In this document: positions 21,582 to 32,080 of the stretch, in pieces
Layout: each line of letters begins with the position of its first letter
Numbering within the stretch: position 1 is the stretch's first letter
Source: Massalongia carnosa
Taxonomy: Eukaryota
Direction: 5' to 3'
Assembly (NCBI GenBank): GCA_965645245.1
Contig: OZ287077.1
Span: 1,674,001 to 1,738,000, forward strand
Length of the DNA stretch: 64,000 bases
Made by a program: the position numbers and the translations under genes
Notes under the pieces: model-generated
The model's database searches: none
What the model was told of the DNA's origin: nothing
The model's input: only the letters and a program-made list of their open reading frames with translations

Positions 21582-22724
21582 ATGGGTCCCAGCAAGAAAA
21601 AGAAAGCCGATAAGCAAAAGGACTTTCAAGTATGTCTCCTTTTAATTACGCACTACAATGCAGGCACTGACCAGATATAGAAACCCAAATTCAAGGTCGG
21701 AAAGGCGCGGCCAAAGCCAGCTAACCACACAGACACTACTTTCAAATCAAAAGGTACACAGGAAAGATAGACCGCTGTTTTACATATTTTAACTCTCGTC
21801 CGCTGATATGAAATTATAGCTATCGTGATAAACCAGCAATCTATCAGCTTGGATGCCCCGTCTCGTTCAGAGCAGTTCACCCGCTACCTTTCCTTGTTAA
21901 CCTCACGTACCGATTCCCAGCGCAAAGATGCTCTCAGCTACCTCACCAATACCGTTACCGCCAACGAGATCGACAAGCCCCTGCCCCAGGATACGAGCGT
22001 CATCATCCCCAAACTCCTCCCGCTGATCCTCGACGGCAACCATGGCGTTCGCATCCAACTACTAAAACTCCTACGCACCCTCTCCCTTACAGGCCTAGAA
22101 GATCACGTTGACACTATCTTACTCTATACTCATGCCGGCTTAAACCATTTGGCTGCCGATATTCAAAGCTCCACCTTGGACATCCTTGAATGGGCAGTAA
22201 CCCTCGGTGATAACGATTTCGTCTCCTGCCCTGGCGCCTGGGTGAAAACTCTTAGATGCCTGTATCTTATGTTGGGCTGGATACCCAGACCTCAACTCCC
22301 CACATACGGCCGTCTCTCCTGCTTCTGGAGCCAAGATGGCGCGCAAGGAAATCTCCTTGTCAAGATCCTTCATGCCATGGCCGCCTTCCTGACCGCGGGC
22401 TTCGTTCCCGGGGCCACGGAAAGTGAGATCAGGCAGATGGAAGCGGAGGAGGCCCAGCGATGTTTCCCAATTGTGCCCCACGCCCAGCATCTTCCCCGAG
22501 GGGGATCTGGTTTCGAATACTTGAACCTGTACGGCCCGCCGCGGAATGTAGATGACAAGCCGTACGAGACGCGCGAGGAGCGGCAGAGTCGGTTTGTGGA
22601 AAGTTTCTGGAAGCCGATGGAGTGGAAACTGGAGCAGTTGAAGAAGGAGGGGGGGGAGGTGGGGAGGGCTGCGAAGGCGGTGGAAGCGGTGATTGCCGAT
22701 GGGATGAGGGACTACGATGAGTAG
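21582..22724 (+). CDS. IPI1: Pre-rRNA processing protein Ipi1 (Rix1 complex), 2 introns near the 5' end
   Basis: Spliced N-terminus is MGPSKKKKADKQKDFQ|KPKFKVGKARPKPANHTDTTFKSK|AIVINQQSI, followed by RKDALSYL and LPLILDG..VRIQLLKLL. Confidence 0.88.
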
Positions 22725-23954: not shown

Positions 23955-24818
23955 TCACTCGACCTTACTCTCGAAATTTTCCCCTTCGACCAAATCCGGG
24001 ATATCATCGTCGTCATCGTCGTCGTCGTCGTTCCCGCCGTCTTTCTTGCCCCGCCCATCTCCCCCTCCTCCTCCGCTGCCGTCTTTCTTCTGCAGGGACT
24101 GGTAGCTCTCAGCTAGCTTGCGCAGGGAAGCCAGGCTGTCCGGGCCGAGCTGGTTAAGGATCCCAGGAACAAGTTCTGTGAGCTCTTTGTCTTCGCCGGC
24201 GCCATAGATGGCGAAGGTATTAGAGGGGAAGGAGGCGTGGACTATAGGGATATTTGCCAGGGAGATTAGTTCGAGAGTTTATGGTGAGATTTGGGGGGGG
24301 GTGTAGGGCGCTAGGGTTTGGGCAAAGAGTAATTGAGGTCGAGGCATTTGGAGTGGACAGGAAGCGGGGGAAAGCAGAAAACTTACCTTTAGGAGCAGCG
24401 AAATGAATTACGTTGCCGTCTTCCTTGAACATGTTCACCTCCTCAATCGCCTGGATGGGTTGCACATTGAGTTTTTTCAGCGCCGTTTGAAGCTTTTTGT
24501 CATCGGTTCCGGACGATTTATGCACTTTTTTCACTTTTCGCCGCGGAGTGCCTTTACCACTGGCAGCGGGATGCTGTTAGCTCCGGGGCATAGAGAAGAT
24601 TAGGGAGACAGCTCATGCAAGATGTGCAATTCCAGGGTTGGTAAGAGGAATACGGAGGAGGGGTCGAAAGAGGAAGGAAGCCATCTTACCCTACATGTGT
24701 GGAAGGTTGAATTAGCCATAGTTCTAGAGACAAGGTAGAGAGAGAGATGGGCTCGTAAGATTTAAAACTCACCAATTCGTACAGATTGCTGCATCTTCGC
24801 CAGCTTTGCCTGATCCAT
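23955..24818 (-). CDS. EGD1: Nascent polypeptide-associated complex beta (BTF3); exons 24818-24773, 24690 (1 nt), 24559-24387, 24241-23955
   Basis: Product is [30 protein letters not shown]...[24 protein letters not shown]...[18 protein letters not shown]...[16 protein letters not shown]. Confidence 0.95.
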
Positions 24819-25625: not shown

Positions 25626-27205
25626 ATGGATTTAAGGTCTCTCTCATATCTTGAATTGCCACCCACGGTAAGCAACCGATATCAATCAAGCATCTTTCTT
25701 GACTCTGACTAGGCCACCAACTATATGCTGATTCTCTTCTCGCCCTCGACTAGGCTGACTTCCACTCTCATCTTCGAGAACAGTCGATGATGGAACTCTG
25801 TACACCTCTTATCAAGAATGGTGGATGTGACACTATATACGTGATGCCAAATCTTCGACCGCCAATAACTCAAGTTTCTGAAGCCATCTCTTACCATAAA
25901 ATGCTGTCCCGCTTAGCTCCCGAAGTAACATTCTTGATGTCTCTCTTTCTCCACCCTAGTATGAACGCAAACGTAATTATCGAAGCTGCTAAATCGAAGA
26001 TAATACATGGGGTAGGTCTTCAACTCTTCAAGGATAGCAATATACTGACTTGGCGCCTAGGTCAAGTTGTATCCAGCTGGAGTATAGTTTCCTTTCCTTG
26101 AGCATATCTAAATCAGCTTATCTGGTGGAGTAGGACCATGCTGACTACTGAACCAGGTGACTACTAACTCAGATGACGGAGTTCTTAATATAGAGCAATA
26201 CTACTCTGTGTTTGAGGCGATGGAAGCAAACCATTTGGTTCTAAATTTGCATGGTGAGATGATAAGTGCATCGCCAGGGGTGACAAGCCTTAACGCTGAG
26301 GCCATGTTCATGCCCCAACTGTATAAACTACACGCCGCATTTCCAAATTTACGTATCGTTCTGGAACATGTGAGCTCACAAGAGGGGTTAGATGCGGTTC
26401 TGCGATGCGGAGAAAAAGTATAGAATTCTATGGAAGATCTCACAGAAGCTATGAGTCTGGCTGACAGATGATACAGGTTGCAGGCACCATCACGGCGCAT
26501 CATCTATGGATGACCACCGAAGACTCTGAACAAGACGTTTTCAGTTTCTGCAAGCCTGTTGCAAAGGTATGTTTTTGAGTGCTGTATTCTCATTTATGAA
26601 TTCCTATGTATATGAGTGTATGTATGATTTTGCTCTTAATGCTTGTCCTGTTTGCGTTTCCACAGACGATGAGTAGTAGCGCTGCATGTTTCTCCCCCAG
26701 GAAGGCTTTGTATGCTAATGTACTATCAGACTCTAGCGGATCGCATAGCCCTTGTCAGAGCAGTAGTCAACGGTTCATCCAAGTTCTTCTTTGGTAAGTA
26801 AGTTCACAATGTAATACATGTGTTAGTCAAATTAAAGACAGCAAAGGGAGTGACTCGGCACCACATCCTGTCCAATTGAAGGAAACAGCTGGTGGGGCGG
26901 CAGGCTGCTTCACTCAAGGCTGGTGTTCTGCTCTTGTAATTAGCGCCTTAGAAGAAGGGATGGCTCAAGGATGGATTAGCAAAGAAGAAGTTACACGTGA
27001 AGCAATCGAAGGCTTCCTTTCAGGTTACGGACGGGCATTCTATAAGATCTCCCAGCCAAAAGAAACCGAATCACGGAAGCGGCGAATTCGGCTTGATAGG
27101 CGAGGCGAAACTATACCTAGGTCGATCACATCTCCAGACGGGACAATTGAGGTTGTGCCGTTCAGAAGAGGGCAGGAGATAATGTCGTTATCGTGGATCG
27201 AGTGA
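25626..27205 (+). CDS. URA4: Dihydroorotase (homodimeric type), multi-exon
   Basis: Motifs ADFHSHLR, YVMPNL, GVKLYPAGVTTNS, LNLHGE, VLEHVS, TITAHHL, FCKPVAK and FFGSDSAPH, joined across canonical introns. Confidence 0.9.
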
Positions 27206-29760: not shown

Positions 29761-32080
29761 TGGCCCAGAAGTCTGTCGCTTCCTTTTTGGGTTAGCGCGT
29801 CTTGGCAGACATAAACAAACCTCCCCACACGCGCGTGACAAAAATGGCCGAACACCAAAACTCGTTTGACAGGCGATTTTTACTAAAGATTTTTCCAATA
29901 TCTTGCTTTGGAAATTTTTCTTAAATAACCACGCTTCAGTATAAAATATCATAAGGTTAAAACTGAATGTCAAACAAGCTGCACTTACAAAATTACAAGT
30001 TTGAAAAGCTTGTAAAATAATCTGATGTTTTTTATCAGACTGCAAACAAAGTAAAGTTTGGTGTTCCCTAATCGAATCTGAATATCCTCATCCATATAAT
30101 TTAAACTTCAATAATTATTCATAATATGAATGATAAAGCTGGTCATGAGGTTGCTTATGAGCTTCGATGCGCTATAGTTACTTGTAGAAATATTTTCGGT
30201 TGCACCTACTTCGAGATAGAGCAGAAGATTGGAGTAGTCAGGGGCACAGCTCAGACGCTCATGAAAAGAGCTCTAAAACGAGCTGGATGTGAGGATTTTC
30301 ACGAGGTCTTGGCCTATGTTGGCGTCATGGAACGGTCCGGTCGAGTGTCAAGAGTAGCAGATGGTACAGACCTTTCAGCAAAGATTCGGACAGCGATTCT
30401 TCAAAATCTCGATGTTAGATCTCAGCAAGCCGTTCTGAATAAAGAAAACATCACTGTTCGTGGCATGCCTCGAAATAAAGGTCCAGCACGTTCGATTATT
30501 GAACGTGTTCAGTATCAGCATGAGCATATTGTTGACGGAGAGATCGTTGGGGAAATCGTGCGAGTTGTTCAGTCTATCAAGCCTCTTCGTATCAACAAGA
30601 ACGAAAATCACAGAAAAAGGCTTTGTAAATGGGCCTCGGATCGAATTGACGATGGTGATATCTTTATATATAGTGACGAGGCCTGGCATGAAATTGGGGG
30701 CTGGCCCTCAGAGAAAAAAAGCAAGATTTCTATTGTAAAAGGTGCGGATCCTCATGAGCTTGCGGCTCTCGAGCCTCCTGTTCAGTTCATCATCATGCGA
30801 TGGGGATCAGTGACTAGTGAAGGTGTGATAGGGCCTCATTATCTCTGGAAAGCAGAGACCAAAGAGGAAAAAGACCTTAATGAATTGAAATTGAAAGAAG
30901 CAAATGAGCTTTCAGTGAAAAAGTTAGAAGATTAAAGAAAGAATGCCATCATTTTCGGATCATCCGAATATCGACTTCTTCAAGTAAGAAATTTCCACAA
31001 ATTGACCGAGAATTGCTAACAAATTCAGGACAAGAATTTCGCAGTTGAGTTACATAATGAAAATTTACGAATAGGTGGGATCAAAGGAAACAAAGGTCAA
31101 CAAATGAAATTTACTTTCGAAAAACTGTTCAAACATGAAGGCCTCGAACGTCGGGGTAAGAAGGGCGGAATAGACGCATTTCTCTATAGAAACAAGGTTC
31201 TTTTGCCTCTGCTATACTTATTCTATGAAGAGGTTCAAAGGGCCCATCCTGACAAAAAGGTGTGGTTAATTGAAGACAACGCATCATCTCACACCAAGGC
31301 CGCTAAGCAATGCAAGGAGGATTGAGAGAAACGAGGCATTTTCAAAGTGGATTGGCCGGCTATATTCTCCAGATTTAAACGTTATCGAGGGGTTGTGGGT
31401 CAGTGAAAAAAGACGATTGATGCCCGAATGGTTGAAAATTCGAGGGGTTGGAAAAGACGCTCAGAAGAAGGCACGAGAATTTCTGACAAATGCATGGAAT
31501 TCTTCCGAGTTAAAAGACCCAGCAAAGCATCTTTCTGCTGAATGGAAGATCAAATTGTGGCGCTGCATAGACGCAGAAGGCAGGAATAATTTTAGAGGAT
31601 AGAAACAATTTCTCTTGAACACATGCCTCCCTCTTTGTTTCATTCAAACAATTTCATATGAACGATTTTTTCCTCGATTCTTTCCTGACCGTTCTTCAAT
31701 CTCTGCTGAAACAAATCCTTATCCTGACTCTTTTTAAGCCAGCCCAAAAACATCGCTTGATTCATCATTGCAATTCCTATCTCGGGGACGCTGTCGCTTG
31801 GACGAAGTGAAAATACGACTCGTTCGTCGCATTGAGGGCGGCGATGAGAGGTCGGAAAGTTGTTCGGGCACCCTAGTAAGTGAGTATGATATAAGAAACA
31901 GAAGGACTATGATACTGACACACAAAATCAAAAGTTGTAGTCATGATGATGATTAGTTGACAAAAGAATGCTTCGATTTGATCATTTAGGTGGGAAATGT
32001 GGGGATAATGAAGCGATTCTATTGGTCAAACCCCATTGTACAACGCTAACCCAAAAAGGAAACGACAGACTCCTCGGCCA
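29761..32080 (+). mobile_element. Tc1/mariner-IS630 superfamily DNA transposon (inactive), ~2.3 kb
   Basis: A 37-bp inverted repeat (29761-29797 / 32044-32080, 3 mismatches) brackets a DDE transposase remnant. Confidence 0.85.
30126..31602 (+). pseudogene. DDE transposase pseudogene with intron 30984-31028
   Basis: Catalytic segments are IYSDEAW, LIEDNASSH and WPA/YSPDLNVIE. There are premature stops at 30933 and 31323 and a 1-nt frameshift near 31361. Confidence 0.85.

Follow-up and report, generated by a model that had tools for sequence, protein, structure and literature searches.

A single G on the minus strand of the fungus Massalongia carnosa, at position 24690 of the 64,000-nucleotide stretch analysed here (the window), is very probably a real, constitutive one-base exon between two complete GT-AG introns of EGD1, as judged from the locus itself and its relatives. 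The codon for Gly16 would thereby be assembled from three exons and read through as the conserved RIGGK. This split of a glycine codon around a one-base exon was the core of the original prediction, and it is borne out both by the joined frame of 168 amino acids and by the comparative loci described below.

Structure of the EGD1 locus

EGD1, or NAC-beta, is a housekeeping gene whose product is a subunit of a ribosome-bound chaperone. In the window, it lies on the minus strand with its start codon at 24818, and the codon for Ile15 precedes G 24773, the last base of exon 1. The gene comprises the following features:

24773..24818, minus strand: EGD1 coding exon 1, 46 nt, from the ATG to the first base of the Gly16 codon; there are homologues with the same N-terminus
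24691..24772, minus strand: intron 1, phase 1, 82 nt; donor GTGAGT, branch motif GCTAAT at 24716-24711, acceptor TAG
24690..24690, minus strand: predicted one-base exon (G), middle base of the Gly16 codon; G in 52/52 dereplicated sequences
24560..24689, minus strand: intron 2, phase 2, 130 nt; donor GTAAGA, branch motif GCTAAC at 24581-24576, acceptor CAG
24387..24559, minus strand: exon 3, 173 nt; T 24559 is the third base of Gly16, followed by the GKGTPRRK basic motif and the start of the NAC domain
24242..24386, minus strand: intron 3, 145 nt, an ordinary GT-AG intron that served as control
23955..24241, minus strand: coding exon 4, 287 nt including the stop codon

Exon 3 matches the Pfam NAC domain (PF01849, E = 1.5e-15) and carries the N-terminal basic GKGTPRRK motif, the combination that identifies NAC-beta/EGD1/BTF3; its identity with named NAC-beta proteins is 93-98%, and it has a single match in the genome. 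Re-reading of the minus strand placed introns 1 and 2 and G 24690 at exactly the coordinates first proposed, with a complete acceptor (branch motif and YAG) upstream of the base and a complete donor downstream. When the exons of the window are joined with G 24690 included, the result is a 507-nt frame encoding 168 amino acids plus stop, whereas omission of the base yields a frameshifted peptide of 24 amino acids, the frameshift on skipping that had been foreseen. The G is thus needed for the conserved reading frame, as is also seen in an intron-free relative (L072, below). The accompanying assertion that nothing except inclusion of the G would serve is correct as regards RIGGK; in the window, however, four other GT/GC-AG routes stay in frame as well.

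The NAC-beta of the window is about 12 residues longer than most homologues, with a Gly-/Asp-rich low-complexity insertion at approximately 24000-24080 (minus strand). Convergent with EGD1 is an Ipi1_N (Rix1 complex) gene at 21807-22724 (plus strand), and divergent from it are frames at 25754-26101 and 26798-27205 (plus strand) that resemble what we take to be a dihydroorotase gene; no Pfam match was found for the 25754-26101 piece. Broken frames at 30105-31602 (plus strand) resemble a Tc1/mariner-type transposase; two pieces of these frames had no Pfam match at E 0.001.

Conservation across orthologous loci

Scanning metagenome contigs with exon 3, we identified 299 relatives, of which the best 80, a set biased towards close relatives, were taken for comparison. 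Introns are present at this place in 79 of the 80 loci, and all 79 display the arrangement G-GT...YAG-G-GT...AG-N (78 found by script, and L057 added by hand because an extra upstream intron defeated the exon-1 pattern); the original prediction had proposed looking for AG-G-GT at orthologous EGD1 loci, and it is there in every locus with introns. Exon 1 ends in phase 1 and exon 3 starts in phase 2 in 79/80 loci, so that a single intron would cause a frameshift.

Dereplication at 70% identity left 52 sequences, one of them from the window. In 52/52 of these there is a YAG-G-GT with a consensus donor, as the sole candidate in 51, compared to a mean of 0.585 and a maximum of 4 in 200 dinucleotide shuffles. 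A branch-type motif (CTRAY or TTRAY) lies 5-35 nt upstream of the G site in 50/52 sequences (null mean 0.12, maximum 2), and the control, intron 3, contains 0 YAG-G-GT sites in 51 introns totalling 5365 nt. The exon base is always G, whereas the first base of exon 3, in the wobble position, varies (A in 20, T in 16, C in 15 and G in 1). The intervening DNA has a median pairwise identity of 0.51 (200 sampled pairs), and that of the window reaches at most 0.56 with any other sequence. Intron 2 is rather long and narrowly distributed in size (median 132 nt, quartiles 116-148), with medians of 95 nt for intron 1 and 88 nt for intron 3.

Several loci can be placed by their protein matches: L018 matches a Wilcoxina protein at 100%, L045 Cenococcum at 100%, L069 Stagonosporopsis at 100%, L016 Letharia at 98%, L010 and L078 Knufia at 96.8%, and L015 matches at 99% the protein P0193, whose cluster includes Coleophoma, Amorphotheca and Phialocephala. 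We take these genera to represent Pezizomycetes (Wilcoxina), Dothideomycetes (Cenococcum, Stagonosporopsis), Lecanoromycetes (Letharia), Eurotiomycetes (Knufia) and Leotiomycetes (Coleophoma, Amorphotheca, Phialocephala). Judged by these loci, cup fungi, moulds and lichen-forming fungi from about five classes across Pezizomycotina keep the layout, with diverging intron interiors. The best 80 of the 299 loci included no DNA recognised as Sordariomycete, Eurotiales, yeast or basidiomycete.

Two kinds of variation in intron content were seen alongside: in L002 and L006, an expanded intron 1 of 475 nt leaves the one-base exon undisturbed, and the additional intron of L057 lies within exon 1, upstream of the pair that flanks the one-base exon.

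At the 80th locus, L072 (773-1000), introns 1 and 2 are absent, and Ile-Gly-Gly is read uninterrupted with the G inside an exon. Because L072 retains intron 3, it is genomic and provides a natural length control; it also has an apparent 5' UTR intron. In a quick tree (140 columns, 59 of 102 inner branches open), which left the window without a position, L072 groups only with the protein P0121, outside the other ascomycete rows, and its intron-free state may be ancestral or may reflect the loss of both introns.

Reading of the junction in proteins and gene models

We gathered 120 homologous proteins with exon 3 alone as the query, so that the collection was blind to the junction. Among these, 28 non-NCBI proteins sit on contigs shorter than 2 kb, and 22 of the 28 read uninterrupted over the intron-3 junction; on the strength of this property of the proteins themselves, these 22 probably come from spliced transcripts. 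RIGGK is present in 21 of the 22 transcript-like proteins, the exception being P0058, which enters intron-2-like sequence instead. Seven of the genomic loci (L010, L015, L019, L021, L035, L048 and L050) match transcript-like RIGGK proteins at 98.0-99.4%.

The suspicion that gene predictors would miss the exon proved well founded: RIGGK is found in 8/62 NCBI-sourced cluster representatives (7 by script, plus P0095) and in 13/61 of the named NCBI cluster members listed, two samples that are both biased (representatives favour odd singletons, and at most 15 members were taken per cluster) and that do not measure genome-wide error rates. RIG-X-GK, with X other than G, occurs in 28 of the 337 proteins examined, the reading expected if a cryptic GT located four bases inside donor 1 were used. 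Some database models already carry the right protein (e.g., P0213, P0106 and P0223), and the exon may therefore stand in existing feature tables. Of the models named as Lipomycetaceae, 2/7 read RIG-X-GK (Lipomyces kononenkoae and L. oligophaga) and the other 5 RIGGK. This annotation pattern is a hint, not proof, that the layout might extend to relatives of the budding yeasts; no yeast locus with this layout at the DNA level was found among the best 80 of the 299 loci.

Alternative explanations of the junction

A single canonical intron, 24768-24560, opened by a GT that lies four bases inside donor 1, would produce RIG-D-GK and dispense with the micro-exon. This is the only in-frame single-intron route in the window, a GT or GC is found at the same +4 position in 48/52 sequences, and the 28 RIG-X-GK models follow this reading; nevertheless, we consider it very unlikely. 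The shifted donor, GTTTTA in the window, is without consensus (G at +5 in 10/48, compared to 52/52 for donor 1), the route is absent in 4/52 sequences, and the residue X would vary among D, I, T, E, N, A, K, S, L, R and stop. RIG-X-GK is absent from all 22 transcript-like proteins. For L048 in particular, the +4 donor predicts RIGIGK, as in a Pyrenophora model, whereas its 98% transcript-like match, P0267, reads RIGGK. Moreover, such an intron leaves the invariant internal YAG-G-GT unexplained.

A longer internal exon is highly improbable. With the outer sites fixed, exons of 7, 31 and 34 nt (the last, 24723-24690, follows an upstream TAG and would add 11 residues) are in frame and stop-free in the window, but just 9/52 sequences offer a longer in-frame exon that starts after a YAG and runs to this donor, with lengths of 16-151 nt and no common size. 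The branch motif would fall within the 34-nt exon, and no insertion was seen in the transcript-like proteins. To be set equally low is one non-canonical intron whose donor or acceptor is off by one base, so that the G would come from either the start of intron 1 or the end of intron 2. Its mature junction is identical, so that mRNA reads alone would not distinguish it from the one-base exon, but a highly conserved gene would then have to use a non-GT donor or a non-AG acceptor, and the reading gives no account of why otherwise diverged sequences keep a mid-intron YAG with a consensus donor (52/52) and a branch motif (50/52).

Finally, an assembly indel in a gene with one ordinary intron, which had been named as a possible refutation, has a negligible chance of being correct: the whole 1501-nt EGD1 stretch is contained in one contig in each of 3 public runs with 0 gaps and 0 differing letters (a fourth run is without coverage of 24680-24722), and, although the assembly may itself derive from these three full-length runs, which so rule out consensus error only, the same mismatch of phase 1 and phase 2 recurs in 79 unrelated contigs. 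The four runs consist of contigs of unrecorded type and show no splice joints, which has no bearing on expression.

Comparison to related splicing classes

Stwintrons, as described in the available text of two papers on Pezizomycotina, are removed in two successive splicing steps that centre on one G (PMC5587772, PMC12403724). They resemble in this what we propose for EGD1, also in Pezizomycotina, but the stwintron G becomes part of a reconstituted splice site, donor or acceptor, and is lost from the transcript, whereas the G of EGD1 would stay and its two introns leave each other's signals whole. A [D1,2] or [A2,3] stwintron was rejected, given that the base after intron 1 is G rather than T in 52/52 sequences; intron 2 is followed by a T in just 16/52, the base there being coding, and no donor or acceptor is rebuilt. 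A zero-base recursive splice site was likewise discarded, as one G always separates AG from GT and its omission causes a frameshift. A micro-exon of the Candida type, between snoRNA-hosting introns, was also set aside, as no known snoRNA was found in the EGD1 introns: Rfam gave 0 matches in the introns of the window and 0 in 20 of the 80 loci (E <= 0.1), and no C-box/D-box pair was found in the intron 1 or intron 2 cores of the 52 sequences. Nor did these searches yield a reason for the length of the two introns.

Order of intron removal

Under the one-base-exon reading, introns 1 and 2 would be removed in turn by ordinary intron-definition splicing. The AG-G recognised as acceptor and the G-GT that pairs with U1 overlap, and because the two sites are not occupiable simultaneously, the introns should be removed one by one. 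The same overlap argument is made in the part of PMC4674806 available to us. The ordered splicing that was initially suggested is accordingly a sound deduction from overlapping sites, but its description as recursive-like is only loosely apt, as the G would be kept in the mRNA. Retention of both introns, or of intron 2 alone, leads to a stop or frameshift in 52/52 sequences. Skipping of the exon or retention of either intron would thus introduce a premature stop or frameshift, and the products would presumably be cleared by nonsense-mediated decay, in which case the arrangement would be held by purifying selection on the splice signals and lost only together with the introns, as at L072.

We lean slightly towards removal of intron 1 before intron 2. 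Two proteins on short contigs, P0080 and P0112, show exon 1, then GG, a GTAYG-type donor and one intron (approximately 87 and 150 nt, respectively), with intron 3 unspliced. They may be intermediates from which intron 1 has been removed first, or they may come from genomes in which intron 1 alone was lost; both fit equally. An ad hoc score of U1 pairing at donor 2 rises from 15.8 to 17.1 once intron 1 is removed, and, to judge from P0058, intron 2 may persist after intron 3 has been removed. Evidence against this order comes from potato invertase, where, as cited in the discussion of PMC4674806, so far as that text was available, the downstream intron is removed first.

A more far-reaching account seems doubtful to us, although parts of the gene-model pattern would accord with it: the exon might predate the split between filamentous ascomycetes and relatives of the budding yeasts, given that Lipomyces and Orbilia models bear the same tell-tale error; it might be the most deeply conserved one-base coding exon of fungi; and it might be kept as an intron-1-first checkpoint, coupled to nonsense-mediated decay, that sets the dose of NAC-beta with the aid of an intronic element about 30 nt downstream. 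The search for a pan-clade intronic enhancer gave CCCCGC as the best 6-mer, present in 10/52 intron 2 cores, which equals the null maximum (10) and is not significant. RNA at the micro-exon was not more open than with shuffled flanks (unpaired probability 0.391 vs. 0.369, p = 0.24). The donor at the micro-exon is no stronger than donor 1 (mean match 2.90 vs. 2.90, in a comparison where the search pattern itself selects consensus).

Three Pleosporales-like loci (L048, L052 and L058) share an identical block of 17-23 nt at about +20 to +40 of intron 2, in introns that are elsewhere 53-70% alike, and CCCCGC is also located at +31 to +33 of intron 2 in L020, L050 and L069. The block of the Pleosporales-like loci is a possible clade-restricted splicing element.

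Known one-base exons

One-base exons are already known in plants and fungi, and EGD1 very probably adds a case that is notable for the depth of its conservation. The closest parallel is the one-nucleotide exon of the Fusarium P450 gene CYP621A (Nelson and Syed 2026, PMC12940212), which, according to the available part of that paper, is backed by SRA reads. That exon and the one proposed for EGD1 are fungal and coding, supply the middle G of a glycine codon within a conserved motif and stand in the context AG-G-GT; in both cases most gene models are wrong and an intronless homologue acts as a length control. The CYP621A exon, as described there, belongs to one genus and a rarely expressed P450, whereas EGD1 is a single-copy housekeeping gene in which the exon spans about five classes of Pezizomycotina.

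In plants, 1-nt exons are described in Arabidopsis APC11 (PMC4674806) and in VPS55 (PMC8831610). From the accessible text of these reports, they share with the proposed EGD1 arrangement a constitutive one-base coding exon between two introns, conservation across a deep clade and absence from annotations, and in some lineages the exon was lost with both introns, a situation comparable to that of L072. The APC11 base differs in being an A, in a plant, and in being proven by mutagenesis and RT-PCR, whereas the exon of EGD1 is predicted from sequence.

The long-read annotation of Coprinopsis cinerea includes 13 one-base exons (PMC12230235), which, in the text available, are fungal coding 1-nt exons in numbers, like the one proposed for EGD1, but from a basidiomycete and given as a count; EGD1 is not named in the searched portion of that source (main text and five supplements). 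In Candida, the available text of PMC5033589 describes polycistrons with single-base exons between snoRNA-hosting introns. These resemble the arrangement proposed for EGD1 in being ascomycete, with a one-base G exon between two introns and ordered splicing, but the Candida hosts are non-coding with snoRNA introns, whereas EGD1 is coding and no snoRNA was found in its introns. No report of a one-base exon in EGD1/BTF3/NAC-beta was found in the literature searched, which consisted mostly of non-subscription papers.

Implications

The locus thus very probably offers a one-base exon in a single-copy housekeeping gene common to many culturable fungi. With its natural controls, in which both introns or possibly just one have been lost, the handling of an overlapping acceptor and donor by the spliceosome, and the order of the two reactions, would be directly testable. 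The exon would also explain a systematic annotation error, namely that most of the sampled NCBI models of NAC-beta have a wrong or missing N-terminus beside the basic motif. The EGD1 case, moreover, tempers the claim made in 2026 that the CYP621A exon is the only fungal example.
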